DNA of 64,000 bases, taken from IMG/VR virus record IMGVR_UViG_3300036939_000021, positions 32,001 through 96,000 of that record; one strand, 5' to 3'. The position numbers and the translations under genes are program-made. Under the pieces are notes generated by a model that was not told the origin of the DNA, did no database searches, and was given only the letters and a program-made list of their open reading frames with translations. The stretch is from a virus. This document shows positions 33,271 through 60,227 of this stretch, in pieces. Each line of letters begins with the position of its first letter. The first letter of the stretch is position 1.

Positions 33271-33330
33271 ACAAAAAAGAAGCTAGATTTTTTAAGTCTA
33301 GCTTCTTTTTTATTCCGGGGGGATTGAATT

Positions 33331-37649: not shown

Positions 37650-37712
37650 AAATAAACCATAGAATTATTTATATAATTCTATGGTTTATTTTTAATATAA
37701 AAAACAAACTAG

Positions 37713-39510: not shown

Positions 39511-39515
39511 ATATT

Positions 39516-40043
39516 ATGGGTAAACTTTCTACTTTAAAAAGAAAAACTGCTGCAAAATGGGCAGAATCAAAACACGCTAGAAATCGATTAGGACAATTTG
39601 CTAGAAAAAATGCACCTGATTTAATTGTTAATACTGGTGGTACTGTTGGATCAATTATTGGAGGAAAGTTAGGAGGTGCTGTTGGTGCATATGCTGGCGA
39701 TTTAATTGGTGGATTAGTTACAAGACAAGTTGTAAATGTTTCTACTTCAGCTTTAAGTGCTAGACAAAAATTAAAAGCTAATGAAGTCTACCAAAAAGCG
39801 AAACGTTTACAAAAACTTAAGATGCTTGGAGCTGCAACAAAAAGTGAACTTAAAAATCGTACAGAACAATTAGGAGACGATATAACCGGAGATGTTACAG
39901 GATGGGCAATAGGTAATACAGCTGCTAATGTAGTAACAAATACTTTAGGTCGTAGTATTCCTTTAAGTGGTGCTGGTGTAGCAATGGCAACAGTTCCAAA
40001 ACTTGTAAAACTTAGACGAAAGATAGCAAATAGTACAAAATAG
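39516..40043 (+). CDS. putative virion-packaged glycine-zipper protein
   Basis: WAESKHARNRLGQF motif plus GxxxG hydrophobic helices. Confidence 0.55.
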   Translation: MGKLSTLKRKTAAKWAESKHARNRLGQFARKNAPDLIVNTGGTVGSIIGGKLGGAVGAYAGDLIGGLVTRQVVNVSTSALSARQKLKANEVYQKAKRLQKLKMLGAATKSELKNRTEQLGDDITGDVTGWAIGNTAANVVTNTLGRSIPLSGAGVAMATVPKLVKLRRKIANSTK

Positions 40044-40102
40044 AAAACCACTGGAATTATATAGATTATTCCAGTGGTTTTCTATTTTGTACTATTTGCT
40101 AT
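40023..40102. repeat. 35-bp perfect inverted repeat / bidirectional terminator with GGAAT..ATTCC core
   Basis: 40023-40057 is the exact reverse complement of 40068-40102. Confidence 0.85.
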
Positions 40103-40362
40103 TATTGTATTTCGATTTCTAGGTCACGTTCAGAGACATCGCTACCATCACTCTGACGATATTCCATATCATCAAAACCAGATCTTACAGCATCTAGAAT
40201 AAAAGCTTTTGCAATATCTTGTATAGAAGCTTCTGCTGTTAAACCTAAATTTAAAGCTAATTTTTTGAGTTTAGCTTTATTAGCAGGAAGTTCTAACGGA
40301 ACACTAACATCAATTTGACCTGTTACAATAATCTCTAAAGTTTTTTCTGTTTTAGTTGCCAT
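40102..40362 (-). CDS. hypothetical protein (cassette cargo)
   Basis: Promoter module at 40363-40417. Confidence 0.7.
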   Translation of the reverse strand: MATKTEKTLEIIVTGQIDVSVPLELPANKAKLKKLALNLGLTAEASIQDIAKAFILDAVRSGFDDMEYRQSDGSDVSERDLEIEIQ

Positions 40363-40473
40363 TTTTTAGATTTCTTAGCGACTCCTCTATTATGGCTATA
40401 AATTTAATAGATGTCAAGTATTGACAGATGTTAATTTTTGTTATATATTTAAAGAGTCGAGTTAAACAATCTT
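40363..40473. promoter_or_regulatory. back-to-back early promoter modules
   Basis: TGTCAA (40412) and TTGACA (40421), each followed by a -10 and GAGTCG. Confidence 0.82.
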
Positions 40474-40716
40474 ATGCTACATCTCTCAAATATTTCCATA
40501 CATCCAGAATATATTATTTGTATAAAATGGTTAGTGACAAAAAAACATACTGGTGATGATATTCAACCAAGTGTTGCAATATTTTTAGATATTACCGAAA
40601 GTCATGCTTTAGATTCTGTTCTCTACTTTCCTATAGATTCGCCAAATGCTAAGTTATTAAGATATGCCGCTGATACAGGTTTATTAGGAACATCAATCGA
40701 ATCTTTTGATTTATAA
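40474..40716 (+). CDS. hypothetical protein
   Basis: ORF after promoter. Confidence 0.65.
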   Translation: MLHLSNISIHPEYIICIKWLVTKKHTGDDIQPSVAIFLDITESHALDSVLYFPIDSPNAKLLRYAADTGLLGTSIESFDL

Positions 40717-40948
40717 GAAAATGAAAAAAGTACAAGAAGAAGCTGATCAACTTTTAAAAGAGATGGTAAAGGATTTAAACGATCTTTTACCTGAAGGTTC
40801 TAGGTGCATGGAACTTCTCTATCAAGATGTTTTAAAAGAAAATATTTGGGTAGGTCGTTACTACGGATATCATAAAGGAGAAAAAGGACATTTTCAGTTT
40901 TCGGTAAATTTACTTAAAGATTCTATAACAGTGGCTAAAGAAGTATAA
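40706..40948 (+). CDS. hypothetical protein
   Basis: ORF track; likely start MKKVQ. Confidence 0.65.
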   Translation: MIYKKMKKVQEEADQLLKEMVKDLNDLLPEGSRCMELLYQDVLKENIWVGRYYGYHKGEKGHFQFSVNLLKDSITVAKEV

Positions 40949-40979
40949 AAAGCAAAAACATAATCGGATAACAACAGTT

Positions 40980-41025
40980 AAAAAGAAACCTCGGAATAAT
41001 AAAGATTATTCCGAGGTTTCTTTTT
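40980..41025. terminator. hairpin with GGAATAAT-AAAG-ATTATTCC core
   Basis: 21-bp perfect arms with a T tail. Confidence 0.8.
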
Positions 41026-41050
41026 TGCTAAAACTTTTTTATATATGCTC

Positions 41051-41111
41051 TTGACATCTAGTATTTTTATAAGCATAATAGAGGAGTAGCTAAAGAAAAG
41101 GAAAAAATCAA
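41051..41111 (+). promoter_or_regulatory. repeated early promoter module
   Basis: TTGACATCTAGTATTTTTATAAGCATAATAGAGGAGTAGCTAAAG. Confidence 0.85.
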
Positions 41112-41339
41112 ATGAGTCTTCAAGAAGTCGCACAAATAGCTCAAGCTTCTCAGAATATTCAGCTAGTAGTCGATACTATGTCTAATGCTATGGTCTATCA
41201 TCCCGAACTTTACACAAACAGAAAATGCTACACGGATGGCTATTTTGTAATGGATAAGACATCCGGGCGAATTTGGAGCTTTCAAACTCTAGATGAGACT
41301 GTTCGCTTTATTTATGGTTTAACATACTGGACACATTAA
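41112..41339 (+). CDS. hypothetical protein (cassette cargo)
   Basis: Between promoter and hairpin 41357-41406. Confidence 0.72.
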   Translation: MSLQEVAQIAQASQNIQLVVDTMSNAMVYHPELYTNRKCYTDGYFVMDKTSGRIWSFQTLDETVRFIYGLTYWTH

Positions 41340-41356
41340 GCTGACGAAAAGTAAAT

Positions 41357-41406
41357 AAAAAATCAAACACCGGAATAAGTAATATTATTCCGGTGTTTGA
41401 TTTTTT
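41357..41406. terminator. hairpin with CACCGGAATAA/TTATTCCGGTG arms
   Basis: 22-bp perfect arms. Confidence 0.8.
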
Positions 41407-41446
41407 GTTAGTTTAAATAAAATAAAAATTAAATTTAAATATACTA

Positions 41447-41500
41447 TTGACATCTATTAATTTTATAGCTAAAATAGAGAAAAGCTAGAAAATTAGGAAA
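41447..41500 (+). promoter_or_regulatory. repeated early promoter module
   Basis: TTGACATCTATTAATTTTATAGCTAAAATAGAGAAAAGCTAG. Confidence 0.82.
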
Positions 41501-41896
41501 ATGAAAGCAAAATACAAAACTACAGAAATTACTGCTTATCCTTCTGGATATAAAGCTGAAAGAGAATTCAATAAGATTTTTACAGATGCTAATTATCAGA
41601 AAGGATTAGAACTTATAAAAGAGAGGATAGGAGAAATAGAGGAGGATTTGATTAAAGAAGATTACAACTCTATTAAATCTCGCTCTACTAAACGGCTTTA
41701 CCCGCATTATGATAGACCTTTAGCCGGATATTTTTATCTAGCTTTATCTACTTATCGAGATAGCTTTAATAAATTAATTATCATGCAATCACCAGAGACT
41801 TTAGAATGGGATAGCTTTGATAGAGATGAAGTCATATACAAAAATCCTGAAGGAGAGACAAAAGCTTTAGAAATTTTAAATCTGATGCTAGCTTAA
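41501..41896 (+). CDS. hypothetical protein (cassette cargo)
   Basis: Between promoter and hairpin ~41912-41955. Confidence 0.72.
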   Translation: MKAKYKTTEITAYPSGYKAEREFNKIFTDANYQKGLELIKERIGEIEEDLIKEDYNSIKSRSTKRLYPHYDRPLAGYFYLALSTYRDSFNKLIIMQSPETLEWDSFDRDEVIYKNPEGETKALEILNLMLA

Positions 41897-41955
41897 AGAT
41901 TGAGAAAAACAAAAAGAATCTCCTAAATAATGTATTATTTAGGAGATTCTTTTTG

Positions 41956-44900
41956 TTAAAAATAGCATATGTCTTTGATATATGTACAGCAATCTGATAT
42001 CCTTAAATTATTGACATTTGTTTTTAGAAGTGCTATACTTTCTACTGCTTCCAAATGCCAGAAACCAAAGTATTCAAATAGTTGCATACTATTAAAATTG
42101 AATATTGGTTGACCTCTACTGAAAGATCCTTCCATCAAACCTGAAGTAACAAAATTGCATTTAAGAAAATCGTAAGAAGCTTTTATTCCTCTTAAAGTTA
42201 CAGATGAATTTCTACCAGAGATATCAGCTATATTTGCATAAATAAACATTCTAAGAGCTATTGCAGCAAAATGAATAGTTCGATAATTACTTACTGGATC
42301 AATTTCAGCATAAAAGTCTGTTGGAGGTTGAAACTTTTTATTTCTTAAATAGTAACTACTTAACCAATTAATAAAGCCCATACTAATTTTTTTAGCTTGT
42401 GCTTTTAATTTTTCAAAATCAGTAGGTAGCGGAATATTAGTAGGAAATTCACCGATAGCCATTCTGTACCAAGCATGAGCTACACTTTCAGCTGGTCTAA
42501 TTTGATAACCTTCCCAATTTGTATTAGGGTCAACACCCTGAAAAGAGAAAAAGTCATATTGACCTTTTTCAAGTTGAAGTGAGTCCCAATACCCCCAGAC
42601 GTAGGTAGGAGCAAAAACACCATAAGTTTTATTTTTATTTTGTTGTCGATAAGCTTCTTGTGCGTCTTCTAAAAATTGTAAAACTTGTCGAAGTCGATCC
42701 CAATAACCCATTTTGACGTACCAACCCGGATATTGATAACCTGTTGCTGGCGCGCCTCTCCAACCTTCTACAGTTTGTCGAGTACCACTACCATCATCAA
42801 AAACATTTACAGTAAACGGAACAACACCGGGATTATAAGGAAGAATATCGCTAGGACTTCCTATAGGTTTAAAATCTCCTATCCATAGAGTATGAGCAAC
42901 TTTAAGACGGCTAACTATGACAGCTTTATAACTTTTAAGTGTTCCAAGTAATCTATAAGGTTCTTGACCTACCCAAAATATCCAAACTTGGCTAGCTGTT
43001 GGGCTAGCTACAAATTCAAAATTTGTAATAATATTTCCGCTGGGTGTTTTATTATCAAAATCTTTAAATTCGTTAGATTGAAAACTAGATTTTACCCAAT
43101 CAGTAGTCTGAATTGTTTTTCGATATTCTTTACCTGCAATCGTAAGTTTTATTATTGCAGTACCCTGTACTTTGTATTCCATCGTAAAAGGTAACGTTGG
43201 CAATCTTCCTAATAAATCTGGTGCAATACCTTTTGTTACTAAACCAGCACCAGCAAAATTACCATTAGCTGATAAGGTTATCTTAAAAACTTCATTTCTT
43301 ATTCCGTTTATTTCTGGATACTCCTTTACAATATTTGCTACACCATCATCACCTTTATAGGTGTAAATAGGATTATCAGCGATCCTAGTATGCCAGACAG
43401 TTTGTGCCTCATCCCATAAAATAAATTCATTTTTATTAAAATTTGCAATAGTTGTTACATTAGCAACTACAGGTAAATATCTTTTATAATATTGTGAAAA
43501 ATCAAAAGGATTGGGTTTAAGACTAATAATTAATTCTAATTCTGTTGTAATACTACAAGCTACTTCTACATATACTGTAGTATCGTCATCAAGTGTCGCA
43601 GTAACAGCATAGTTAGAAAATTCAATACTTGGATATTGAGCGGTAGAAGTTGGTATAACAACTTGTAAAAAATCTTTTTTATCTCCAGATATTACTCTGG
43701 AATTATTAACAATTCGATCATTTTTTGGAACTATTACAATTTGAGAACCCGGATAAGCAAAAGGATTTAATACATCATCTTTTTTATACCAATGTGTTAA
43801 ATTTATGACTTCTGCTGAGATTGCCTCTGTATATTTATTACAGTTATAGGCTACTGCCCAAATAGGATTAGTAGGCTCTATTTGAGTCATACTCTCATAA
43901 GCATCAGATGCCCAGGGGAAAACATCAATAGCACCAAGAGCTTCTATAGGTCTTAAAAGTCTCCACATCGGATAAGCTTCAAAACCTGTATTAGCGGGTA
44001 CTACAGCACCAACATATGCAGCATAAACAACTTTAGCAGTACCAGTATAATTAGTTTTTAATTTTATTATTCCAGGGTTTTCGTTTGTTTGTGTAGGTGC
44101 TTTTCCTCCAGGTTGTGAAGATTCTGGATAATATCGAACTATTACACCTTCTAATAAAATATTGCTAGTCCAATATTCGATATCCCACCAAAATCCTCCT
44201 AGCGGTTCAGCATAAACATTTTGCCAAAGTAATTGATCTGTTTCTGGATAAACTCGATAGACATCACTAAGCAATTCTCCAAAATTAGGAGAACCATTAG
44301 GAATAGTAGTAATCCCATTATTAAAATTTAGTATTAAATCAAAAAAGCCATAGTTTAAAGGATCGCTTGAAACTTTACCTTTAGTAACAAAAGATTCTGT
44401 TGTTATCAACCAATGAGGTACTCTAATACCTTTGTCGGGTGTCCAATTGGATTCTATTTTTAATGGATAAAAATAATTTAATAACGCATTACCACAAGCA
44501 ATTGCTAAATTTTTATATCGGACATCTCCCGTAACTTGGAAAGCATAAGCACAAGCTCTAGTAATAACAGCTTGTGCCTCTGTAGGAGCGCCAGAACTAG
44601 GAAAATATCCACCACGACCTAAAACCTTGTGGAAACTATTTCTAAGTACATATTGAGCATTAAGAATATATGGATAATCAGCTTTTTGCCATCTTAACAA
44701 CCAACTAATAGCACCATTTAAATGCAAATCTAAATTTGTATCATTAACCGATTCTTGTAATTTTGCTAGAGTTTCTTCTTTAGTTTTTGTTATATCGTAA
44801 TCCTCAGCAGCTTGTTTAAGAGCTGATTTTCTAAAAGGTTGATAGCTTCTTTTAAAACTTAAATCTATTTGCCAAAAATAGGGAGCAATGTAAGTATTAC

Positions 44901-45558
44901 TCCAAGCCATACAAGTGTATATATTATTACGAAATCTAAACGGGCGTGATGCCAAATCACGCATAAAATTGTTAGTAAGCTGTCTCTCTGACTCCGAGAC
45001 AGTTTTTGACAAAGACCAAGTATCAACACTGGAATTATAACCATATCTTGTTCTTGTTTCTATTCCACCATTTTTACGAGTTGTAAGAGTTTTTATATTA
45101 AAACTTCTATTAGAATTATATGTAATTTCAAAAGGAAAATTAGGATAATCTTCTAATAAATCAATATCTTTAATAGAACATTCATCAATATACCAATGAT
45201 TCCACTTAGAAAATGTAAATTGTACTTTCCATAATCCAGATGCAATCTGATTAATATTCCATTTATCAGCTATATATTCTCCTAAATTATCGATGCCCAA
45301 TTCCCAATTGTATGTTGTTTCTCCTACAGGTTTAGGTTTACGTAATCGCCATTCTAAAGGATTAATACCCTGATAGTTTTGAATAATATCTACAGAACTT
45401 AGATCGGTTACGGTTCCTGATAAATTCCAAGATTCCTCTATAATTTTTCCTGTTGGTATTCCAAGAATTTCAAAACAATCACCAAGTTCTTTATTATTAG
45501 AAAAGATACTATAATTTACCGATACTCCATATTCAGGGTTAAATTGAAATTCTGGCAT
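41956..45558 (-). CDS. large tail protein: two gpM-like domains plus putative (alpha/alpha)6 glycosidase-like region
   Basis: N-terminal ~240 aa parallel 33683 and 32923; PTEAQAV...AFQVTGD.RY resembles the GH8 SEGQ motif. Confidence 0.65.
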   Translation of the reverse strand: MPEFQFNPEYGVSVNYSIFSNNKELGDCFEILGIPTGKIIEESWNLSGTVTDLSSVDIIQNYQGINPLEWRLRKPKPVGETTYNWELGIDNLGEYIADKWNINQIASGLWKVQFTFSKWNHWYIDECSIKDIDLLEDYPNFPFEITYNSNRSFNIKTLTTRKNGGIETRTRYGYNSSVDTWSLSKTVSESERQLTNNFMRDLASRPFRFRNNIYTCMAWSNTYIAPYFWQIDLSFKRSYQPFRKSALKQAAEDYDITKTKEETLAKLQESVNDTNLDLHLNGAISWLLRWQKADYPYILNAQYVLRNSFHKVLGRGGYFPSSGAPTEAQAVITRACAYAFQVTGDVRYKNLAIACGNALLNYFYPLKIESNWTPDKGIRVPHWLITTESFVTKGKVSSDPLNYGFFDLILNFNNGITTIPNGSPNFGELLSDVYRVYPETDQLLWQNVYAEPLGGFWWDIEYWTSNILLEGVIVRYYPESSQPGGKAPTQTNENPGIIKLKTNYTGTAKVVYAAYVGAVVPANTGFEAYPMWRLLRPIEALGAIDVFPWASDAYESMTQIEPTNPIWAVAYNCNKYTEAISAEVINLTHWYKKDDVLNPFAYPGSQIVIVPKNDRIVNNSRVISGDKKDFLQVVIPTSTAQYPSIEFSNYAVTATLDDDTTVYVEVACSITTELELIISLKPNPFDFSQYYKRYLPVVANVTTIANFNKNEFILWDEAQTVWHTRIADNPIYTYKGDDGVANIVKEYPEINGIRNEVFKITLSANGNFAGAGLVTKGIAPDLLGRLPTLPFTMEYKVQGTAIIKLTIAGKEYRKTIQTTDWVKSSFQSNEFKDFDNKTPSGNIITNFEFVASPTASQVWIFWVGQEPYRLLGTLKSYKAVIVSRLKVAHTLWIGDFKPIGSPSDILPYNPGVVPFTVNVFDDGSGTRQTVEGWRGAPATGYQYPGWYVKMGYWDRLRQVLQFLEDAQEAYRQQNKNKTYGVFAPTYVWGYWDSLQLEKGQYDFFSFQGVDPNTNWEGYQIRPAESVAHAWYRMAIGEFPTNIPLPTDFEKLKAQAKKISMGFINWLSSYYLRNKKFQPPTDFYAEIDPVSNYRTIHFAAIALRMFIYANIADISGRNSSVTLRGIKASYDFLKCNFVTSGLMEGSFSRGQPIFNFNSMQLFEYFGFWHLEAVESIALLKTNVNNLRISDCCTYIKDICYF

Positions 45559-45625
45559 ATTTTATAATAAAAAAATACTAGCTCCCTAAAGCTAGTATAG
45601 AAGTGTTACCACATATTAGAACATT

Positions 45626-45838
45626 TTATCTTTTTATTGGCAAATTACAACAGGGTGTTACTAATAAAAAACAAGATTCTCTATAATATCCATAAACTCT
45701 AAGAGAAGCATACCCAACACCACTAAGAGAGCCTAGGGGTTTATAAGAAACCTGATTAGGTATTTCAGCATCATTTATTACAGCATAGCAATCTGTTTTT
45801 TCTAAATCTATAATTCGTTTGTGTTCTGTTGTGTGCAT
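45626..45838 (-). CDS. hypothetical protein
   Basis: ORF track. Confidence 0.4.
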   Translation of the reverse strand: MHTTEHKRIIDLEKTDCYAVINDAEIPNQVSYKPLGSLSGVGYASLRVYGYYRESCFLLVTPCCNLPIKR

Positions 45839-46233
45839 AATTCCAGTGTTTGATTTTTCGTAAATCGATTTCCTGAGTATTCTAATTTATTAACTTTTTC
45901 TATAAAATTTTTAAGAGGTCGTACCCAAGCTAAAGACTCTCTATTAGTTTGAGCAGCTGGATATAAAATCCAATGATTTTTTTCTTCAATCTGAACTAAA
46001 TATAAATCTTCTGTTTCGCTATCTCTAGCAATAAAGTTACCGTAAATTGATATCTCTTTAAATGTGTTAAACCAGTTATCTGTATATATTACAGGAAATT
46101 TTTTAGTAAGTTCTATATAAAAGAAATTTGCAGAGTAACTTCCAATACCAATTATCCAGTAATTTGTACCTTTAAAATGTTTCCAGTTTTCCCCGGATTT
46201 TGGAATTTCACGATCAAACATAAAAGCTATCAT
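45808..46233 (-). CDS. DUF1653-like protein
   Basis: WKHFKG..Y...ARDSETE...WVRPL.NF...RF. Confidence 0.7.
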   Translation of the reverse strand: MIAFMFDREIPKSGENWKHFKGTNYWIIGIGSYSANFFYIELTKKFPVIYTDNWFNTFKEISIYGNFIARDSETEDLYLVQIEEKNHWILYPAAQTNRESLAWVRPLKNFIEKVNKLEYSGNRFTKNQTLELCTQQNTNEL

Positions 46234-46283
46234 ATATTATTTTTATTATTATAACAGATAAGAAACACTGGAATAATACATTA

Positions 46284-46296
46284 GTGGAATATTGTA
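46284..46296 (+). promoter_or_regulatory. putative late promoter GTGGAATATTGTA
   Basis: 28 nt upstream of the tape measure ATG. Confidence 0.7.
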
Positions 46297-46324
46297 TTTA
46301 TATATTTTAATTTTTTATTGTTAA

Positions 46325-49300
46325 ATGTCTACATCTCTTGGACGGTTAACACTAGATTTAGCCGCAGATCCGACACAACTTAATAATGATTTAAATGCTG
46401 TTAAAGCTCATGCTCAACAGATAGCAAAAGATATAGAAAATAGTTTAAGACAAGCTTTTCAAACAGCAGGATCAGCAGCAACTAATGCAGCAAACCAAGC
46501 TAACCGAAATAATAATACGGGTACGAGTAATAATTTTTTTTCTGGTTTAAATAATAGTTTAACAAGTTTTACTACAAATATTAGAACTACTTTTGCATCT
46601 TTACGTACTTTAAATTTTACTAATATTTTTAGAGGCTTAAAAACTTCATTTCAAAATATACCACAAATAGCCCAAAATGCTATTAGAAATTTACCAAGAA
46701 TATTAAAAGCGGGTGTAGCAACTTTACCTATTGTTTTAGCTGCTGTCGGAATAGAGGCAGGAAAACGTTTAGGTCAAGGAGTATTAAGTGCAACAAGAAC
46801 AGGATTAAGCGGTTTAGGACGTTTAGCACAAAAAGCAGGAAGTACAGTAGCTAGTAGTTTTAATGCAGGTTTGGGTGCTATAGCTTTTGGTGCTTTTACA
46901 AGTGCTGGAGTTTCTGCATTTAATACCGTTACAGGTGTTATAGGAGGTGCAATTAATCAAGTTAAAGGATTTGGAGGAGAGTTATTTAACACTTTAAAAG
47001 AAGTTCAAAAATTTGATGCACGTCTTAAAACTTTTGTAACCGATACAGAAAAACGAGCTGAACTAAATAAACGTTTAAATTCTTTTGCTGCAACCACACC
47101 TTTTGAATTAAAAGATATTCGTGAATCTGCAATAAAAAATCTCAGCACTATGGCTGATCCGTCTAAATTAAATTTAGATAAATATATGGCAGATTTAAAA
47201 GCACTAGGAGATGTTGCAGCAGGTTCTCAACAACCAGTTGGAGAATTAGCGGATAAATTTGCTAAAGCACGTTCAGAAGGAAAAGCACAAAATGAAGATT
47301 TACAAGAATGGGCAGGTAGAGGCATACCCATTTATCAAGAGTTAGGAAAACTCTTAGGAGCTACAGCAGCAGAAGTCAGACAAATGGCTACAGATGGAAA
47401 AGTAGATTTTGAAATGCTTTCTGCTGCTGTTAGTTCAATGACTCAAGAAGGAGGAGTATTTTTCAAAAGTATGGAAAATCAAGCTGGAACATTAGAAGGT
47501 AAAATTTCTAATATTTCAGATACTTTCTACCAATTTAAAGAACAATTAGGTAAAGCTTTTGAGCCTCTAGCTAATTTAGGCGTTGATATCTTTGGTGAAA
47601 TAGTCTCAAGCCTTAAAGATTCTAAAGGTGTAATGGAAGATATTACAAAAGAAACTCAAAAACTTGCAGATTATTTTAAAGAAAATCCAGAAATAGCAAA
47701 ATCTTTAAACAAGGCACTACAAGACATTATTCGTGGTGCAATGAAAGGTCTAGTTAATGGTGTTAAAAGTTTTACAGAATTTCTAAAAGATAATCCAGAT
47801 ATTATAAAACAAATTGCAACCGGAATAGCTACAGTATCTAAAACTATTGCACAAGTCGTTGGATATGTTGTAGATTTAGCTTCTACTTTTGGTGGTGCTG
47901 TTGCCGATAATATAGCAAAAAACCAGGATTTAATTACTGGAATAATAAATATAATTCGGGATATTGTTGATAAAGCAATAGAAATTGCTTCAGTTTTTGG
48001 TAACACGATTCTTAATGCTGTAAATGAAAATAATTTTCTCATTGAAGGAATGAGAAATATTGTTACAGCCATTTTAGATTTATGGTATCAACATAAAGAT
48101 ACTTTATTATTAATTGCACAATCTATCGGCTCTCTTGTAGTAACAGCTTTAAAAGTTGTTATAGATTTAGTTTTAGGTATTCTTAATTATCTTAAAGAAC
48201 ATCCAGCAATTATACAAACTATAGTTAAAACAGTACAATTTCTTTCTGCAATATTTGAAGGAATTCTTAAAACTATTGGTTTATTACTTCAGGGTTTAGG
48301 TTGGGTGATAGAGAAAGTTACTCAATGGGTAGCAGCTAATCAACCAATACAAACATTTTTTGATGGTGTTAGTACAGCAGTCACCGGAATAATAACCGGA
48401 ATGGATAATATTATTGCAAAAACTTTTGATTGGTTAAAAAAATTAGAACCTGTTCAAAAAGCTTTAGAGTGGATAGGTAATTTAAGTAATAGTGGTGGTG
48501 ATAATAGTGGTAATGAGAATAATGGAGAAGTTCAAGATATAGGTAATTCCATGAATGGGATGCTTAATACTATGGGAGGGAGTTTTGATCCTTTTGCTGG
48601 TGGTTCTAATTCTTTTGCTGCCAAAGTTGTAGGACATAGCGAAGGGAACAGAACTGCTACAGGCGGTTTTAATGCTAGTTATAAAGGACATAGCGATCCT
48701 GGTAATGCTCAACATAACGTGGGTAGTTTCAGTATGCAAACTGGAACTCATGGAATGAAATCACCCGAACAAGCTGATATATATTGGCAAGGAAAACTAA
48801 AAGGTGTATGGAATCAGTTCGTACAAGCCGCACAAAAAGCAGGATTAGATCCAAACAATCCAACACTTGCAGCAAATTTTTTAGATTTGTATACTCAATC
48901 TCCTGCTGCTGCTGTAGAAGGTATGACATCTTTTATTAATAATCTTGACAAAATTAAAGCAGGTGGAGGAACAGAAGAAGCAATATTAAAAACACGATTA
49001 GCGGCATTTCATAATAGTGCTGGAAGATTAGAAGCATGGACAGATATAGGAGGTTTAACAGCAGATCAAAAAAGAAGAATGTCAGCATTACAAGCAGCGA
49101 TGCCTAATGCCACTAAAGGTATGCAAATGAGTAGTAGTGGAGGATTAGAAAATTTTCCTGAAAAAAATACAGGTAGCAGACGTGGTGGGAAAACTATAGC
49201 TCATCCAAGTGGTGGATTAACTATACATGATTCCGCTGGTGGAACTATCGATAAATATAGTCAGCTAACGGTACATCATCCTAGTAGAGGAACTAGAGGT

Positions 49301-52300
49301 AGAGAATCCGGACGGAATTATTTAGATATTGGTGGACGTTTAGAAGAAGCAAGAATAGGTGGTGATGTAGCTGGTGGTGTTCCTCATATTAAAAAAGATT
49401 TTGTATTAGAGGATAAAAATGGAAGTCTTGATGTAGGTATGCCAGCACCTACATCAGGTATTGTTTCTGCTATTTATCCAGAAGTAGGAGCTGTTGTAAT
49501 TGGAGACGGTAAAGGAGGACGTAAAGGTGCTGCTCTACATATGAAAAATATTAGAGTAAAAGTAGGGGATAGAGTTTCTTATGGTCAGATAATTGGTACA
49601 CAGTCTTATACAGGTAGTGAAGCTGTACACGCTCACGTAGAACTACCATTAAATGAATTTCCTAGATATATTGCAGATTTAAGATCAGGTCGTTTTGGTT
49701 CAGCTCCAGAATCTTCTAATTCCGATGATAAAAGTTTAGGTAACTTTAACGAAAGAGGTACTGGTAGTAACAAACCTTCTAATAAAACTACACCAAAAGT
49801 TAGCAGTTCAAGTGGAGGTTCTAGAGTTGCTGCTGCTACGAGTACAAGTAATGTTAGTGGTACTTCTTCTAGTAAAAGTTCTGTTTCTAGCTCTAGCACT
49901 ACAAGTAATAGCAGTGGAGGTCTTGTAGCACCTAAAGTAAGCTCTATCACAGTATCGCCTCAAGCTAAAAGAGATTTACTTACCGCTCGTCAAAAAGAAC
50001 AAGAAAAATCTTATAAAGAGATTGCTGATGAAATAGCATTCTCTCAACGTACTGGTAATGCTCAACAAAAACAACAACGAGAATTAGAAGATACAGCAAG
50101 AAAGCGTCAAACAGAAGAAGTAAAAGCCAGATTACAATTACAGATAGCTAAAGCAGAATCACCGGAAGCTAAGAAAATTTTAGAGAAAAATCTTCAACAG
50201 TTTGATGTTGACACTAAATATGAAGACGAACTCAAAAAATTACAACGTCAACGAGAAGATTTAGTAAAATCTCAACAAAATAAAATAGCCGCTATTAAAA
50301 AAGCAGAAGAACGTAAAAACGAATTTATAGAACAAAAACGAAAAGCGGGTGAAGAATATACACCAGCAGATTTAGAAAAATTCAAAGTAACACCTGATGA
50401 AGGTGCAATGATGGATTTCTCAAAAGCAATCAAAGACGTTGATAAAATGATTGCTTCTCAGAAAACTTTAAAAGAATTAGAACTCCAAACCCTTGGAATA
50501 AGTGAATCTATCGAAGAACGTCAGGAACGACGTGCTAAACAACGAGAACGTGATATAGAACAACTTAAACGTCAAAGTGCTATTGAAATTGATAGTTTGA
50601 AAAAACTGGAATCTTCGGTAACTGATGAAGATTTAAAAAAACAAATACAAGAAAAATTATCTAAAACTGAATTACAACTTAATGCAAAAATAGAGCTAAT
50701 GCCAATTGATGACCAATTGGAAGATTTACAGTTAGCATTATCAGAAGTACTTGCAGCAGGAATTAAAAAAGATGCACCAGAAGCACAAGAAATACAAAAA
50801 CAAATAGACGAATTAAATAAACAAAAAGCAGAAATAGCTAGAAAATCAGGATTAGATTTAACCCTCTTAGAAAACGAGCGTAAGCAAGCTGATATAGAAC
50901 GAGAACGTGAAAAGAAAGCCGAAACTAATGCTTTAACACATCGTACTAAAATAGCTGAAATTGATAGTAAAATTACTTCAGCTCGTTCTGATACGGAAAG
51001 AGCTACTTTAGAATTTGAAAAAGAAAGATTAAGTTTATTACAAGAACAATCAGAAGAACAACAACCTCTATTAGATAAATTAGCTGATTTACAAAAAGAT
51101 AAATCAACACTCTTAGGAAACGGTATTAAAGAATCATCGGAGGAAATGAAAATCCTTAATGATTCCATTGGTACTGTTACTCAGCAATTACTTTTATTAC
51201 AAAAAGAAGGTAAGACAGCTTTAGGCACTCTTACTAAAGAATCTCAAAAAGCTATAGATGAAGCTAAACGTGCTGACTCTAGCAGATTATTAGAAAAAGA
51301 ATCTTTACTATCAGGTAGCGATCTCAAATCTTCACGTTTAGAACAAATGCGTGAAAGAGATGCTGATCCATATAAAACATCAGCTTTCGAGAAAGAGATA
51401 GCAGCATCACAAGAAGCATTACGCTATCGTCAAGAAATGTTAGACATTGAAGAGAGAATAGCAAGTTTTCGTGATACTAATGCAGAATTATCGGTAACAG
51501 AAGAAAACCAACTCCGGAATAATGCAAGAGCAATTCATGAAATTAATTTAGAAAAAGTAAATGATAACGTCAGAACACTTGGAAAAGATTTAAGTAGTAT
51601 AGGTAAAGGTGCTGTTAAAGATTTTTTTGGTCAGTTAGTTTCTGGCAGTATGGACTTTAACAGTATTATGCAAAATATAATTTCTCAAATAGGTAATCTT
51701 GCGGTAGAACTTATTCAATCACATATTTTCGGAGAAGATGGATGGTTTGGTAAAAAATCTAAAAAAGAAGAAAAATCTGGGGGTGGTTTCTTAAGTGGGT
51801 TATTAGATGGCTCTCAAACACCCTCTAGCTTATTAGGTGGAAGTGGAGCGGGTGCAAGTCCTCTACAACCTGCTTTTGTGTCTGTAGTAGGCAGTGGAGG
51901 AGGTATAGGAGGATTGATAGGAGGTGCTACAGGTACAAGTAGCTTTGGAGGTGGAACCGATTTTATTAGTGCAATATTTGGTGGAGGAGGTTCTATTAAT
52001 AAAACCAATCCCTTACCGATAGATATGGTTAGCGCTGATAAAAATGCCTTTAGCGGTCTAGGGGATATCTTCTCTGGTATCTTTGGAGGTGGCTCTAGTG
52101 GAGGTCTAGGAGGGATGCTAGGGGGATTATTCGGAGGAGCTACCGGGGGATCTACAAGCTCACCTGGAGGAGGATTATTTGGAAGTATTCTTGGAATCTT
52201 ACCTAGTATTTTTGGATTTGCTGATGGTGGAAGAGTTCAAGGTGTAAAAATAGATAAACTTCCTAATCCAAGCGAAAATCCTATTGCAAAAGCTCTTAGA

Positions 52301-52624
52301 GCCGAAAGTATCGCAAGTGGTCAAAAACCTATTCTTGCTGTACTTCATGAAGGCGAATTAGTTCTTAATCGAGAACAACAACAAAGAGCAGGTATTTTTG
52401 ATGTTCCTAGATTTGATAATGGTGGACGTGTTGGTAATAATAGTATGAGTTTTGGAAATACAAATAATAATAATATTAATATGAGTTTTAATGTCGGTGA
52501 AGGTGTTGATAATTCCGGATTAGACGTAAATATGATCCGTGCTGTCGTAAATAACGAAATTATTAGACAGCAAGGATCAGGAGGAAGTTTAGGACGTGGT
52601 TCTTATTCCAGACGTGGGAGATAA
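46325..52624 (+). CDS. tape measure protein with embedded lysozyme-like and M23 peptidase-like domains
   Basis: FAATTPF...LGDVAAG...GIPIYQEL tape-measure domain; VKVGDRV..GQIIG...TG....HAHVE (M23); C-terminal FADGG...LHEGELV. Confidence 0.93.
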   Translation: MSTSLGRLTLDLAADPTQLNNDLNAVKAHAQQIAKDIENSLRQAFQTAGSAATNAANQANRNNNTGTSNNFFSGLNNSLTSFTTNIRTTFASLRTLNFTNIFRGLKTSFQNIPQIAQNAIRNLPRILKAGVATLPIVLAAVGIEAGKRLGQGVLSATRTGLSGLGRLAQKAGSTVASSFNAGLGAIAFGAFTSAGVSAFNTVTGVIGGAINQVKGFGGELFNTLKEVQKFDARLKTFVTDTEKRAELNKRLNSFAATTPFELKDIRESAIKNLSTMADPSKLNLDKYMADLKALGDVAAGSQQPVGELADKFAKARSEGKAQNEDLQEWAGRGIPIYQELGKLLGATAAEVRQMATDGKVDFEMLSAAVSSMTQEGGVFFKSMENQAGTLEGKISNISDTFYQFKEQLGKAFEPLANLGVDIFGEIVSSLKDSKGVMEDITKETQKLADYFKENPEIAKSLNKALQDIIRGAMKGLVNGVKSFTEFLKDNPDIIKQIATGIATVSKTIAQVVGYVVDLASTFGGAVADNIAKNQDLITGIINIIRDIVDKAIEIASVFGNTILNAVNENNFLIEGMRNIVTAILDLWYQHKDTLLLIAQSIGSLVVTALKVVIDLVLGILNYLKEHPAIIQTIVKTVQFLSAIFEGILKTIGLLLQGLGWVIEKVTQWVAANQPIQTFFDGVSTAVTGIITGMDNIIAKTFDWLKKLEPVQKALEWIGNLSNSGGDNSGNENNGEVQDIGNSMNGMLNTMGGSFDPFAGGSNSFAAKVVGHSEGNRTATGGFNASYKGHSDPGNAQHNVGSFSMQTGTHGMKSPEQADIYWQGKLKGVWNQFVQAAQKAGLDPNNPTLAANFLDLYTQSPAAAVEGMTSFINNLDKIKAGGGTEEAILKTRLAAFHNSAGRLEAWTDIGGLTADQKRRMSALQAAMPNATKGMQMSSSGGLENFPEKNTGSRRGGKTIAHPSGGLTIHDSAGGTIDKYSQLTVHHPSRGTRGRESGRNYLDIGGRLEEARIGGDVAGGVPHIKKDFVLEDKNGSLDVGMPAPTSGIVSAIYPEVGAVVIGDGKGGRKGAALHMKNIRVKVGDRVSYGQIIGTQSYTGSEAVHAHVELPLNEFPRYIADLRSGRFGSAPESSNSDDKSLGNFNERGTGSNKPSNKTTPKVSSSSGGSRVAAATSTSNVSGTSSSKSSVSSSSTTSNSSGGLVAPKVSSITVSPQAKRDLLTARQKEQEKSYKEIADEIAFSQRTGNAQQKQQRELEDTARKRQTEEVKARLQLQIAKAESPEAKKILEKNLQQFDVDTKYEDELKKLQRQREDLVKSQQNKIAAIKKAEERKNEFIEQKRKAGEEYTPADLEKFKVTPDEGAMMDFSKAIKDVDKMIASQKTLKELELQTLGISESIEERQERRAKQRERDIEQLKRQSAIEIDSLKKLESSVTDEDLKKQIQEKLSKTELQLNAKIELMPIDDQLEDLQLALSEVLAAGIKKDAPEAQEIQKQIDELNKQKAEIARKSGLDLTLLENERKQADIEREREKKAETNALTHRTKIAEIDSKITSARSDTERATLEFEKERLSLLQEQSEEQQPLLDKLADLQKDKSTLLGNGIKESSEEMKILNDSIGTVTQQLLLLQKEGKTALGTLTKESQKAIDEAKRADSSRLLEKESLLSGSDLKSSRLEQMRERDADPYKTSAFEKEIAASQEALRYRQEMLDIEERIASFRDTNAELSVTEENQLRNNARAIHEINLEKVNDNVRTLGKDLSSIGKGAVKDFFGQLVSGSMDFNSIMQNIISQIGNLAVELIQSHIFGEDGWFGKKSKKEEKSGGGFLSGLLDGSQTPSSLLGGSGAGASPLQPAFVSVVGSGGGIGGLIGGATGTSSFGGGTDFISAIFGGGGSINKTNPLPIDMVSADKNAFSGLGDIFSGIFGGGSSGGLGGMLGGLFGGATGGSTSSPGGGLFGSILGILPSIFGFADGGRVQGVKIDKLPNPSENPIAKALRAESIASGQKPILAVLHEGELVLNREQQQRAGIFDVPRFDNGGRVGNNSMSFGNTNNNNINMSFNVGEGVDNSGLDVNMIRAVVNNEIIRQQGSGGSLGRGSYSRRGR

Positions 52625-52626
52625 AG

Positions 52627-52869
52627 CTATTTTAAATATATAGCTTTAACGATGTCTAAAGATTGTTTTTGTTTTTCATCAAGCCAATCTATATTTTCAT
52701 GCTCACCTTGATAAGTTCCTGATAAAGCATTAAGTCCTATTTCTACGAGATCACATCCAGAAATATCATCATATCCTGTTCCATTATTTCCAGAAACAAC
52801 AATTCGAGTCTCCGAGTCTAAACCTTCAAGCAATTTTTGTAATTTACCAACTGTTAGATATTCTTTCAT
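52627..52869 (-). CDS. hypothetical protein (cassette cargo)
   Basis: Promoter module at 52870-52933. Confidence 0.72.
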   Translation of the reverse strand: MKEYLTVGKLQKLLEGLDSETRIVVSGNNGTGYDDISGCDLVEIGLNALSGTYQGEHENIDWLDEKQKQSLDIVKAIYLK

Positions 52870-52933
52870 TTTCTATAATCCTTCGATTTTCTACTTACTT
52901 CTTAATTTTAACTATAAAAATCTAAGATGTCAA
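52870..52933 (-). promoter_or_regulatory. repeated early promoter module
   Basis: Reverse complement TTGACATCTTAGATTTTTATAGTTAAAAT. Confidence 0.85.
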
Positions 52934-53041
52934 CAAAAGCTATAATTTTTATTTTATTCCCATTTTATTTCTAAATTCTTACGTTTTAACATTTTTATCA
53001 ATTCTTAAAAAAAATATCTTGATGATAACAGCTAGAAGTAA

Positions 53042-53224
53042 TTATTTTATGTAATCACTAAAAGTTTTATTCAATAAATAATATTTCATATCATAACTTT
53101 TAATCTCTTTTAAATGCTTTTTACAGCAATGTAATAAATTTATCTCTCCCTCATATTCAGCAACAGCCAGAGATAGCCTACCGTCTTCTTTACAGATATC
53201 ACAAAAAGGTATAGTAACTTTCAT
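53042..53224 (-). CDS. small zinc-binding protein, paralog A
   Basis: CDIC...GRLSL.VAEY...HCC..HL.EIK. Confidence 0.65.
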   Translation of the reverse strand: MKVTIPFCDICKEDGRLSLAVAEYEGEINLLHCCKKHLKEIKSYDMKYYLLNKTFSDYIK

Positions 53225-53226
53225 AT

Positions 53227-53418
53227 TTATTTTAGATAATTAATAAGAGTTTTATTCAATAACCAATAATAGGAGTATTTTTCTTTAATTTCGATTAAAT
53301 GTGTTATACAACAATGTAAAACTTTTAGATCATTATCGTATTCTGTATATTCAGCAACGCCTAAAGATAAACGTCCTTTTATTGCACATTGATTACAAAT
53401 TGGAATGTTAACCTGCAT
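53227..53418 (-). CDS. small zinc-binding protein, paralog B
   Basis: CNQC...GRLSL.VAEY...HCC..HL.EIK. Confidence 0.65.
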   Translation of the reverse strand: MQVNIPICNQCAIKGRLSLGVAEYTEYDNDLKVLHCCITHLIEIKEKYSYYWLLNKTLINYLK

Positions 53419-53819
53419 TATTCTTTTAATCCTCGATTAGCTATAATACTCCCTCTTCCTGCACAAGATTGGGAGCAATATTTATCTTGTTTTCCTTTTA
53501 AATCTCTACAGCAAACTACACAACTTTTACCATTAAATTTTCTATTAATTGCTATTGCTTCTCCATAACATTTTTTTGAACAATACTTATTCTTAAGAAC
53601 TTTATTTTCTTCTCCACATATTAAACATTTTGGCTTTTCTTTTGGTATGCGTCTTTCTTTTCGTATTTGTTGTTTAAACTTTTTTTTATCTTTTTTCTTC
53701 AAAATTACTTTTTCTTGTGATAAAACTTTTATTTTAACAGGCTCTTGATTTGTTTTCTTTTTTGCTTCTATCCGCTCTAGAGCATCTAACTTGCGAATTT
53801 CTGTATAATCAATATTCAT
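53418..53819 (-). CDS. basic protein with two CxxC...YCSxxC zinc fingers
   Basis: CLICG...KYCSKKC and CVVC...KYCSQSC. Confidence 0.7.
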   Translation of the reverse strand: MNIDYTEIRKLDALERIEAKKKTNQEPVKIKVLSQEKVILKKKDKKKFKQQIRKERRIPKEKPKCLICGEENKVLKNKYCSKKCYGEAIAINRKFNGKSCVVCCRDLKGKQDKYCSQSCAGRGSIIANRGLKE

Positions 53820-53823
53820 AGTC

Positions 53824-54270
53824 TTAATTCTCCAAAAATCCCGATTCTGTTATAAAAGTAGCAAGCCCAAAAGCTTGCCATAAATGTGATTTTAAATATT
53901 TTGTAGTTTGCTTACCATACTTTTCTATAAGACACTTACGCATACCGGAATCATTAGTAACACCATGATGTTTTTTAATGGTTGTTCTTAAAATCATAGT
54001 ATCGTCTATATCTGTTATAATATCAGCTTTTTTCTTTTCCCAAACTTGATAAAATCTCCCACTCCAAAAAGCCGTATCTAAGATTTCACGTCCAATAACT
54101 TGCCCCATATTTGCAAGTTTCTCAATGAATAAATATTCAGCTTGTGATGATTCCAGTAGTGTTACTATTTGTCCATTTGTGGTAATGCAAGCCTTATATA
54201 TTTGTGTTCCATCCCATTCAAGATAGGCTGATATTTTATTACCCGGATCGATTGCGATTATTAAAGGCAT
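53824..54270 (-). CDS. RuvC-like Holliday junction resolvase
   Basis: IIAIDPG...FIE...HLWQAFGLA. Confidence 0.75.
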   Translation of the reverse strand: MPLIIAIDPGNKISAYLEWDGTQIYKACITTNGQIVTLLESSQAEYLFIEKLANMGQVIGREILDTAFWSGRFYQVWEKKKADIITDIDDTMILRTTIKKHHGVTNDSGMRKCLIEKYGKQTTKYLKSHLWQAFGLATFITESGFLEN

Positions 54271-54331
54271 AAAAAACTAGGTAAGTCTTACTGTGAGCTT
54301 ACCTAGTTTTTTAGTATATGTCAAGAGTATA

Positions 54332-55234
54332 TTAAAAATTAAATTCTTTATCGAGTGATTCTAGATAATGCTGAATCTCTTCATTAGATGGTTTTAAGCT
54401 GTCTCGATCACTAATAATTTTAAACTGCGTAGTTGCTTTAGATTTTGATGTTCCTAATTGTGGCAGGTCTAAAGCTAATTTAACCTCATGACACGCTAAC
54501 CAAATGCTATGAGTTAAAGAAGGCTTACGTCCTAAACTTAAAGCACCGTCATAATAATAAGCAGCTAACTCTTCAGCACGTCCTACAGCGTGTATTTGTA
54601 AAGCTTCTGGTATGTGATTACGTCCTATTTGGATAATGCCATTTATTACAGGCATTGATCGTAATTTATCAGCGGTTGTACCAAGTAAAAACTGATAAGT
54701 CATATTAGTATACTTGGCATAAGCTCTTTCATCGTGTCCACAATGAGCTTTAATTACATCTGTAAAACTTCTACGGTGAATCTTACGTTTAGCTCTTTCT
54801 TCTTCCCAGGTGCCTATAATAAACTTTTGATGATCTGTTAAATCTACTGGCTGATTATCTTTAATACCTATTTGATATCCAGCCATCCGATAAAGGAATT
54901 GGTTAGCACCTGCATCGATCATCTCATCAAATAACTCTGGGTTATCTTTAGCTAACCAACGTCCCATAATCTTTGCTGGTATTAAAATAACCTGAGATGA
55001 TCCTTTACCAATACCATGTTGAATGCTTGCTTTCACTAACTTTGTGAATTTTTTCACAGTGCCCTCAAACTCATTTATATCAATAGTTTCAAGATTTTGA
55101 CAACGTTTAGTTACAGTAGTACGATCAATATTTTGCCAACGTGAATAACTAGATTGTGTACAAAAAGCTTGACCATTATTTAAAATTACTACTTCAAGAC
55201 CAGAATCACTGCGAGAATATGTTAAACTAGACAT
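54332..55234 (-). CDS. antirepressor-like DNA-binding protein
   Basis: GLEV....G.AF..QS.Y.R N-terminus and RRSFTDVIK...YTN..Y..LLG C-terminal domain. Confidence 0.5.
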   Translation of the reverse strand: MSSLTYSRSDSGLEVVILNNGQAFCTQSSYSRWQNIDRTTVTKRCQNLETIDINEFEGTVKKFTKLVKASIQHGIGKGSSQVILIPAKIMGRWLAKDNPELFDEMIDAGANQFLYRMAGYQIGIKDNQPVDLTDHQKFIIGTWEEERAKRKIHRRSFTDVIKAHCGHDERAYAKYTNMTYQFLLGTTADKLRSMPVINGIIQIGRNHIPEALQIHAVGRAEELAAYYYDGALSLGRKPSLTHSIWLACHEVKLALDLPQLGTSKSKATTQFKIISDRDSLKPSNEEIQHYLESLDKEFNF

Positions 55235-55323
55235 ACAACAATTTTCCTTAGATTATCTACATGGGGCTAGCAACCGTTAATTGCTAGCCTTCTTTTTTAT
55301 TTTAACATATTATATCGACATCT

Positions 55324-55383
55324 AGCAAAAAGAAACATACACCGGAATCATAAAGATTATTCCGGTGTATGTTTCTTTTTGCT
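55324..55383. terminator. hairpin with GGAATCAT-AAAG-ATTATTCC core
   Basis: 25-bp perfect outer arms. Confidence 0.8.
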
Positions 55384-59884: not shown

Positions 59885-59956
59885 TACTTTTATTAGTAAA
59901 ATAGGGTAAAAACAACAGAATCATAAATATAATATTTATGATTCTGTTGTGAGTTT

Positions 59957-60175: not shown

Positions 60176-60227
60176 GATAAATTCCTTAAAAGCTTCATTT
60201 CTACTATATGTCAAAATTTAATAGATG

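Follow-up and report, generated by a model that had tools for sequence, protein, structure and literature searches.

A 64,000-nucleotide stretch of viral DNA, bases 32001-96000 of the single 105,884-bp contig filed as IMG/VR record IMGVR_UViG_3300036939_000021, raises the question of why several long hairpins within it share a GGAAT-type core at the apex, and whether their arms were produced by copying the DNA that lies beside them. This stretch is referred to below as the window; coordinates refer to it unless they are marked “genome”, which denotes the whole contig. A first-pass annotation had proposed that terminators are generated de novo at these sites by fold-back or template-switch synthesis initiated at the core octamer, or else that the hairpins are two-arm sites for a recombinase or nuclease. 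Here, the hairpins were analyzed together with the other copies of the core. The contig, with a G+C content of 32.6% and classed in the database as a virus record, is that of an AT-rich, siphovirus-like cyanophage of ~106 kb. The hairpins are probably intrinsic (Rho-independent) terminators of this phage, many of them bidirectional, formed by facing pairs of a dispersed word whose arms have been lengthened.

An inverted-repeat search of the window located the four hairpins of the first-pass annotation and their three looser relatives at the positions that it had given (Table 1). These seven hairpins have arms of 19-38 nt that are 96-100% complementary, and their RNA folds range from -21 to -54 kcal/mol, with z scores of -9.5 to -16 against shuffles. 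The shared core stood, but its exact letters had to be corrected slightly in three hairpins: that at 40023 carries GGAATTAT on one arm and GGAATAAT on the other, one arm of that at 41354 carries GGAATAAG, and at 55324 GGAATCAT is paired with GGAATAAT. The looser three (37647, 41908, and 59912) possess core variants that match at 7 of 8 positions (AGAATTAT, TAAATAAT, and AGAATCAT). A genome-wide list of stems of at least 14 pairs, with two mismatches allowed, comprised 40 hairpins, 10 of which display a GGAAT-type core at the apex; with the two weaker pairs at genome 27121 and 96149, the core hairpins number 12 in all. Ten second-order Markov simulations yielded 6-10 stems of at least 14 pairs each, compared with 37 in the genome, and none of at least 20 pairs, compared with 13. 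Furthermore, the 10 core-bearing hairpins compare with ~0.15 expected at the genome's own inflated motif frequency, so that sharing of the core, on which the first-pass annotation had staked its idea, is clearly beyond chance. It can also be observed that an apex 20-mer with the loop AAAG is present four times (genome 9291, 27132, 72993, and 87344), and that the long hairpins at 1974-2016 and 33271-33313 have another common apex, of AAAAGCTAGATTT type, and may represent a second small terminator family.

The core itself is a dispersed word and is not special to the hairpins. The window contains 47 copies of GGAATAAT (4.55 expected) and the whole genome 77 (~7 expected); GGAATCAT has 38 copies genome-wide (~3 expected). 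Written as GGAATMAT, the word has 115 sites genome-wide, approximately 1 per kb. It extends over ~20 nt, comprising an A-rich stretch, seven G-free, C-rich positions, and then GGAATMAT: G is nearly excluded at the seven preceding positions, C is favoured at -2 and -4, and a pyrimidine occupies -1 in 107 of the 115 sites. A crude caller of open reading frames (ORFs) placed 34 sites in the sense direction, 36 antisense, and 45 outside ORFs. The sites are spread evenly and no 10-kb bin is strand-biased, for which reason a polar word similar to Chi or to the FtsK-orienting polar sequences (KOPS) was rejected. A promoter of the phage sigma factor was rejected as well, since sense and antisense counts are equal and no conserved -10 element follows. 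Searching the literature for the literal motif strings returned unrelated papers only. Two ORFs (genome 21615 and 23097), one of which is the Dam methylase gene, start with the word, as ATG-GAA-TCA-TC, and a reading frame of two codons, ATG-GAA-TAA, lies inside several of the intergenic single copies.

Single copies account for ~92 of the 115 sites, and the 66 of them that lie within ORFs keep the context, with G at 2-9% from -7 to -1. All 12 sense sites in frame 2 have the GGAATCAT form; GGAATAAT there would give a TAA stop. Two sites in the portal gene sit at residues that are variable among relatives. Hairpins with at least 14 pairs hold just 18 of the 115 sites, and at 96 of them fewer than 10 pairs can be drawn, random positions averaging 5.5. 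Where neighbouring sites are no more than 30 nt apart, all 10 pairs are convergent.

The positions of the paired copies agree with those expected of terminators, as the first-pass annotation had assumed. Ten of the 12 core hairpins are located no more than 27 nt from the stop codon of the preceding gene, on either strand, and three of these separate convergent genes. The stable stem-loop straight after a gene end that typifies intrinsic terminators is thus present, as is a U-rich tract following a G+C-richer part of the stem, with T-rich 3' arms visible. A consensus scan gave terminator-like calls at 41358-41405 (both strands), 41025-40980 (-), and 41956-41909 (-). The hairpin at 40023 is a predicted bidirectional terminator, the gene that converges on it from the right (40102-40362) ending at the final base of the right arm. 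At 59912-59950, the hairpin would serve as terminator of ORF 59957-60214.

A comparable arrangement exists in two phages of Nostoc, N-1 and A-1(L). The word of N-1 is CCCCGGAATCA, with 92 CCGGAATCA sites against ~1 expected, and that of A-1(L) is CCCCGGAGTCA, with 89 CCGGAGTCA sites. Counted as CCGGAGTC(A), A-1(L) has 89-90 sites against 0.6 expected, 46 on the + strand and 44 on the - strand, of which 26 are sense and 29 antisense and 35 lie between genes; C occupies the three preceding positions. The N-1 core, GGAATCA, is the core of the GGAATCAT form in the present phage, where CMCYGGAATMA is matched at 34 sites and the exact N-1 9-mer at 8. The features of the A-1/N-1 motifs, a C-rich run followed by GGA[A/G]TCA in tens of asymmetric copies, are therefore found in this phage also, and its word appears to be an AT-rich local form of the lineage-specific motif of N-1 and A-1(L). 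Both of the latter also form terminator-like hairpins from pairs of their word: of the 29 N-1 hairpins whose stems reach at least 12 bp, 19 were flagged as motif pairs, and the stems of these measure 12-16 bp; examples in A-1(L) have stems of 13-20 bp. Word pairs in these Nostoc phages are both convergent and divergent, whereas the close pairs in the present phage are all convergent. In N-1, a near-identical hairpin unit of ~31 nt (motif, loop TTTTAAT, motif) recurs at 21797-21827, 27736-27768, 43248-43278, and 39597-39627. A-1(L) possesses a second over-represented word, AGTGACTC/GAGTCACTCTAAAA-like, with 48 sites, which often stands right before the CCCCGGAGTCA word and is sometimes palindromic itself.

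The two Nostoc phages were also aligned with each other. Among the 89 A-1(L) sites, 35 were unaligned with N-1, 25 lay in alignments that did not cover the motif, and 29 were covered. Eighteen of the 29 have the N-1 letter in N-1, 2 have the A-1(L) letter, and 9 have no motif, although two of these 9 resemble the N-1 form split by alignment gaps. A single letter thus appears to have shifted concertedly across many orthologous sites in two phages with the same recorded host, which argues for a sequence-specific reader co-evolving with the sites. Only 3 of 18 N-1 hairpins have flanks that can be aligned with A-1(L); two of the three are two-armed in both phages, each with its own motif letter, and those hairpins are therefore old and maintained. 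Genes common to the present phage and A-1(L)/N-1 were found by tblastn: TnpB (54%), an FtsK-like protein (27%), the ResIII helicase (25-26%), a 404-aa protein (25%), the primase (20%), and part of the tape measure. Their structural genes, by contrast, are unrelated: this phage is a siphovirus, whereas A-1/N-1 are myoviruses. In the available text of Chenard, Wirth and Suttle (2016, PMC4916379), 43 and 21 repeat motifs near gene starts are reported for A-1 and N-1, respectively; they are asymmetric, their orientation does not follow that of the genes, and promoters or stoperators are proposed. The word described here is of the same asymmetric kind, not oriented with the flanking genes, and replication genes are common, but it is the AT-rich word of a 106-kb siphovirus. 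The counts obtained here are 89 and 92 sites. The in-gene copies, the pairing into terminator hairpins, the one-letter difference at orthologous sites, and the absence from hosts are not described in the text available from that paper.

What, then, explains the length of the arms? The core pair alone contributes -5.9 or -1.8 kcal/mol, the addition of 4-6 pairs brings ~-15, and full arms reach -28 and -38, while two G+C-rich words in N-1/A-1(L) give -18 to -31 kcal/mol unaided, the N-1 pairs accounting for -18 to -26. The core pair is therefore weak in an AT-rich phage, and a terminator needs extra complementary flank. Within the 18 nt upstream of the core, the arms of the ten exact-core pairs match at 18, 18, 18, 15, 13, 12, 11, 10, 9, and 5 positions; the same 18 nt compared between single sites match at a mean of 6.1 (sd 2.2), and at 14 or more in 0.1% of pairs. 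Judged by these matches, the arms appear to be copies rather than independent draws from the degenerate motif context. Long perfect arms also occur without the exact core (41908-41957 and 37647-37694), and lengthening is therefore a trait of the terminators of this genome, not of the octamer. In the reading proposed here, each hairpin is a convergent pair of the ~20-nt dispersed word. The AT-rich word being weak, a working terminator would need more flank, which is site-specific and perfect or nearly so.

The hairpin at 40023 is the site at which the direction of copying can be read. The claim that gene 39516-40043 ends within its left arm was confirmed, the stop codon TAG occupying 40041-40043. 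The inner 17-nt arms, which begin directly after this stop codon, are the usual motif context; the outer arms are coding DNA and its inverted copy (Table 1). Six homologues of the 175-aa product, with 48-78% identity (65-78% for five of them), were obtained from Logan assemblies, as protein sequences only; no match was found in IMG/VR, either as a single sequence or as an alignment. In the alignment of the six, the C-terminus VPKLVKLR[KR]xIAxxTK is kept to the end, and the left outer arm is therefore ancestral coding DNA, the right outer arm being derived. Since the final codons, I-A-x-x-T-K-stop, are those of the conserved protein, the proposal that coding DNA was copied here in inverted form is upheld. 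A single templated strand switch between the arms of a pre-existing hairpin probably made this 21-nt copy, because a perfect 21-nt complement arises far more easily by one templated event than by point mutations. Template-switch (quasipalindrome) mutation is a known class, in which hairpin stems are perfected or extended. The likeness lies in the inverted copy of adjoining sequence across an existing hairpin, at 40082-40102; the difference is that quasipalindrome mutations are sporadic, whereas the product here stands in a predicted functional terminator and overlaps a gene end.

Bacteria offer familiar examples of terminators built from two inverted copies of a dispersed word. In the available text of Treangen et al. 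(2008, PMC2397512), inverted pairs of the DNA uptake sequence (DUS) of Neisseria and the uptake signal sequence (USS) of Pasteurellaceae serve as Rho-independent terminators, and DUS copies are spaced ~1,150 nt apart on both strands, in and between genes, with flanks that are degenerate past the core. Set against what is reported there, the phage word is similar in its density of ~1 per kb, its occurrence on both strands above chance, and its inverted pairs at predicted terminators. It differs in being viral and not enriched in the cyanobacterial genomes sampled, and no uptake machinery is implied; moreover, the phage arms have long site-specific complementary flanks and weak core pairing. As with DUS/USS pairs, an inverted pair of the phage word would supply both word and stop signal in the same short space, and the word is presumably kept by a putative phage-encoded reader. 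We tentatively suggest, as a possibility that falls somewhat short of an even chance, that this is a virus-owned self-recognition word whose reader belongs to the gene set shared with A-1(L)/N-1 and has drifted in specificity, the hairpins doubling as signal and terminator and being lengthened by mirror-copying. The helicase, the FtsK-like motor, the primase, and the ParB/KorB-like protein would be the candidate readers, and such drift could account for G in A-1(L), A in N-1, an AT-rich word here, and ~90-115 sites per genome.

Searches of hosts and of other phages bear on whose word this is. Among 401 cyanobacterial genomes, 39 contain the paired core and none contains it more than twice. In a search of 401 genomes from one cyanobacterial order, none had the extended pair. 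Each of 26 genomes from one family of heterocystous cyanobacteria has 3-26 copies of CCCGGARTCA. Within these samples of cyanobacterial genomes, then, the word is no host trait. Regarding other phages, YGGAATMAT-N4-ATKATTCCR matched 35 contigs in IMG/VR, once each, which is the chance level, and no such word appeared in any of 80 IMG/VR loci around distant helicase relatives; a single-protein helicase scan gave no match. The portal relatives found have only 53-59% identity in IMG/VR and 49-59% in JGI metagenomes, and because these relatives are HIP1-rich they are cyanophages. The excess of CCTGATGG that they show is a coding tandem repeat.

Several points weigh against the terminator reading or parts of it. 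Neither motif nor long hairpins are displayed by phages with a related portal (49-59% identity; 22 loci, 157 kb): no stem exceeds 14 bp, and no common apex and no excess of GGAATMAT were found in these loci. The U-tract of the longest hairpins pairs with an A-tract, as is usual for bidirectional terminators. The short core pair at genome 96149-96188, just past the window, lies inside a 978-codon ORF and is therefore no terminator, and the hairpin at genome 9281 has its nearest stop 139 nt away. The phage also uses ordinary GC-rich terminators, located ahead of its TTGACAT promoters, so that termination does not depend on the motif pair. Homology of the motif with that of N-1/A-1(L) is suggested by a 7-9-nt core and, TnpB apart, by gene similarity of 19-27%. 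The template-switch origin proposed for the outer arm concerns one event, reconstructed without an ancestral one-arm state. Finally, termination itself is predicted from position and fold energy only, and none of the runs listed with the stretch is an RNA run.

The hairpins might instead act mainly as double-stranded DNA, either as symmetric sites for a dimeric reader (a stoperator-type repressor or a ParB/KorB-like protein) or as cruciforms cut by a resolvase, with termination secondary. The word is kept at the DNA level, in every reading frame and in both orientations, and the same letter change at 18 of 29 alignable sites of A-1(L) and N-1 points to a sequence-specific reader. A 324-aa protein with HTH_ParB/KorB domains (genome 5870-6844) is a candidate, its alignment with the ParB-family protein of A-1(L) being weak (19% over 257 residues, E 2e-5 for the pair alone). 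Cruciform extrusion, too, is favoured where the centre of a perfect palindrome is rich in A and T. However, most sites are single and asymmetric, and dimer binding to palindromes is therefore not the main mode; hairpin positions follow stop codons rather than promoters, and complementarity of up to 38 bp runs far past any plausible protein footprint. Stoperators of cluster A mycobacteriophages are oriented with transcription, unlike the word here, with its 34 sense and 36 antisense sites. What remains in common with stoperators, which are cited in the available text of PMC4916379 and also proposed there for the A-1/N-1 motifs, is tens of copies of a short asymmetric site across a phage genome. 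Although a primarily DNA-level role is unlikely, a double binding site for the putative reader may coexist with termination.

A fold-back origin in its original form, in which the octamer itself starts fold-back or template-switch synthesis and makes terminators de novo by mirror-copying its flanks, could explain why the arms are much more alike than independent motif copies, why ancestral coding sequence is mirrored at 40023, and why the apex 20-mer with the AAAG loop recurs four times. It is nevertheless improbable. Approximately 92 of the 115 copies are single and have no mirrored flank; a lone octamer offers no inverted repeat from which snap-back could be nucleated; and equally long perfect arms exist without the exact core. 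Moreover, the hairpins of N-1/A-1(L) are plain motif pairs, with stems of 12-20 bp and no copying of flanks, and two of the three that can be compared are two-armed in both phages and so are old. The other half of the earlier proposal, two-arm recombinase or nuclease sites, finds no support: the 136 ORFs scanned yielded no domain of an integrase, a resolvase-type recombinase, or a Y1 transposase. Integron attC sites are likewise unlike these hairpins, given that no integrase domain was found and that the centre is conserved and the outer arms variable here, the reverse of attC.

Inversions at the hairpins, which had also been envisaged, were absent from the phage's own DNA in the Logan contigs of run X1, the only DNA run listed with the stretch and probably the source sample rather than an independent one. 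A 21,473-nt contig of this run (depth ~21, another genome) joins look-alikes of the promoter at 52887-52933 and the hairpin arm at 55344 on opposite strands. This joint and other short matches come from other X1 contigs at 85% likeness, and an inversion of the phage genome was rejected in favour of related phages with common promoter and hairpin-arm sequence; a comparable hairpin-promoter junction seems to exist in one related phage of the run.

It is very improbable that the hairpins are mobile palindromic elements inserted after genes, whether similar to repetitive extragenic palindromes (REPs) and miniature inverted-repeat transposable elements (MITEs) or to IS200/IS605 ends moved with the help of TnpB. 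Two TnpB genes are present, identical apex units recur both here (AAAG loop) and in N-1 (31 nt, TTTTAAT loop), and core hairpins at genome 7332 and 9281 flank the second TnpB region (genome 7897-9141). Yet the Y1 (HUH) domain of TnpA and of the REP-associated tyrosine transposases (RAYTs), the cognate enzymes of REPs and IS200/IS605 ends, is absent from the 136 ORFs scanned, leaving just the two TnpB; the outer arms differ from site to site and are native coding DNA at 40023. Most word copies are single and stand in frame within conserved genes, with no indels relative to relatives (in the portal, and in A-1(L) compared with N-1), and insertion therefore cannot explain them. An assembly artefact from chimeric reads or the assembler has a negligible probability: although the 80-nt palindrome at 40023, the longest, breaks the Logan contig graph, and is the only hairpin to do so (one contig stops at 40052, a 70-nt unitig covers 40028-40097, and the next contig begins at 40073), the contigs of run X1, a second assembly, match every hairpin with 0 differences, four inside one 41,959-nt contig and a fifth covered by the unitig, so that an assembler quirk is ruled out, and the hairpins lie exactly between genes, with the same architecture in the isolate genomes A-1(L) and N-1.

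Returning to the hairpins as terminators, we read them as insulating small gene cassettes and parting convergent genes. The region 40102-41896 is a row of promoter-ORF-hairpin cassettes, five small ORFs each with a promoter and a hairpin to itself, with the anatomy of insulated early-gene cassettes. Its promoters belong to a strong sigma-70-type family, TTGACATCT-N-TAnAAT, of which further members are located at 4621, 5618, and 6977 (+) and at 12821, 52927, and 63014 (-). TTGACATC has 24 copies on the + strand of the genome against 1.1 expected. TTGACAT sites with a -10 element number 31, several having the same leader of ~70 nt, which runs to the start codon, and many a terminator upstream. 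Approximately 50 nt of this leader was also observed in other contigs of run X1. PeSL (promoter-early stem-loop) cassettes of T4-type phages, as presented in the available text of Arbiol et al. (2010, PMC2839356), consist of a sigma-70-type promoter and a terminating stem-loop with a conserved motif, flanking small orphan ORFs. Compared with that account, the present phage has similarly strong sigma-70-type promoters beside stem-loops around small orphan ORFs, but a TTGACA promoter stands directly downstream (22-43 nt) in just 4 of 12 core hairpins, and its motif also occurs throughout coding DNA. The link between the hairpins and the formation of cassettes, drawn in the first-pass annotation, may hold by analogy with PeSL alone.

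Table 1. Positions of the hairpins, promoters, and genes discussed (window coordinates unless marked genome; fold energies in kcal/mol)
Feature	Position	Strand	Details
Dispersed motif H7-GGAATMAT	4387-63709	both	65 window sites: 47 GGAATAAT, 18 GGAATCAT
80-nt palindrome (core hairpin)	40023-40102	.	between convergent genes; arms 40023-40060/40065-40102, 38 nt, 97%; -54.3 (+), -52.3 (-); z -16, -15
Last 6 codons and stop of gene 39516-40043	40023-40043	+	outer left arm
Inverted copy of the gene's final 21 nt	40082-40102	.	outer right arm; from complementarity and protein conservation
Core hairpin	40976-41029	+	arms 40980-41000/41005-41025, 21 nt, 100%; 27 nt past stop of ORF 40706-40948; TTGACA promoter 22 nt downstream; -31.2, z -9.7; terminator-like on -
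Core hairpin	41354-41409	+	arms 41354-41378/41385-41409, 25 nt, 96%; 14 nt past stop of ORF 41112-41339; TTGACA promoter 38 nt downstream; -33.6, z -11.5
Core hairpin	55324-55383	-	arms 55324-55351/55356-55383, 28 nt, 96%; 8 nt past 3' end of Dda-like helicase gene 55392-57011 (-); -38.6, z -10.1
Looser hairpin, 7/8 core variant	37647-37694	+	22-nt arms, 100%; at stop of tail-assembly gene 37080-37649; -24.5
Looser hairpin, 7/8 core variant	41908-41957	.	24-nt arms, 100%; between convergent ORF 41501-41896 (+) and tail gene 41956-45558 (-); -29.0
Looser hairpin, 7/8 core variant	59912-59950	-	19-nt arms, 100%; 6 nt past 3' end of ORF 59957-60214 (-), 27 nt upstream of PolA start; -21.3
Sigma-70-type promoter, TTGACATCT family	41051-41079	+	directly after hairpin 40976; match 11/12
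Promoter, TTGACATCT family	41447-41475	+	after hairpin 41354
Promoter-like site	42011-42039	+	after hairpin 41908
Small ORF	40102-40362	-	0 Pfam, 0 PHROG
Small ORF	40474-40716		0 Pfam, 0 PHROG
Small ORF	40706-40948		0 Pfam, 0 PHROG
Small ORF	41112-41339		0 Pfam, 0 PHROG
Small ORF	41501-41896	+	0 Pfam, 0 PHROG
TnpB (OrfB_IS605 + TNB)	2156-3487	-	Pfam
TnpB (OrfB_IS605 + TNB)	genome 7897-9141	+	Pfam; 54% identical to A-1(L) transposase gene
Tail-assembly gene	37080-37649	+	PHROG
Portal	37954-39510		Pfam/PHROG
Tail protein	41956-45558	-	Pfam/PHROG
Tape measure	46325-52624		Pfam/PHROG
Dda-like helicase	55392-57011	-	Pfam/PHROG; replication set
PolA	57785-59884	-	Pfam; replication set
ResIII/DEAD helicase	60228-61670		Pfam/PHROG; replication set

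The remaining genes are in accord with the class of phage named above. Scanning of the 136 ORFs with Pfam and PHROG profiles revealed a siphovirus-type structural set, including further tail proteins of L, J, and assembly kinds, in addition to a sigma factor, a Dam methylase, two TnpB, a ParB/KorB-like protein, three KilA-N proteins, and an FtsK-like ATPase. Searches of the phage for tRNA genes and Rfam families gave no hits, and no DNA match to window 39000-46000 was found in the phage collection searched. PolA has weak matches to Nodularia and Pseudanabaena phages, and the best TnpB matches, 62-67% identical, come from filamentous cyanobacteria. In the available text of a 2026 preprint (10.64898/2026.02.14.705889), tnpB lies beside a 30-kb invertible segment in the A-1(L) cluster.

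These results bear on the biology of this group of phages in three respects. The hairpin at 40023 represents a clean natural case of mirror-copying, in that the direction of copying is readable from protein conservation. Inverted-pair terminators of a dispersed word are textbook knowledge for competent bacteria, and here the word is that of a virus lineage and is not enriched in the hosts sampled. Furthermore, N-1 and A-1(L) are culturable sisters on Anabaena/Nostoc PCC 7120 with a one-letter difference at orthologous sites, which makes the old “promoter-like” repeats directly testable.

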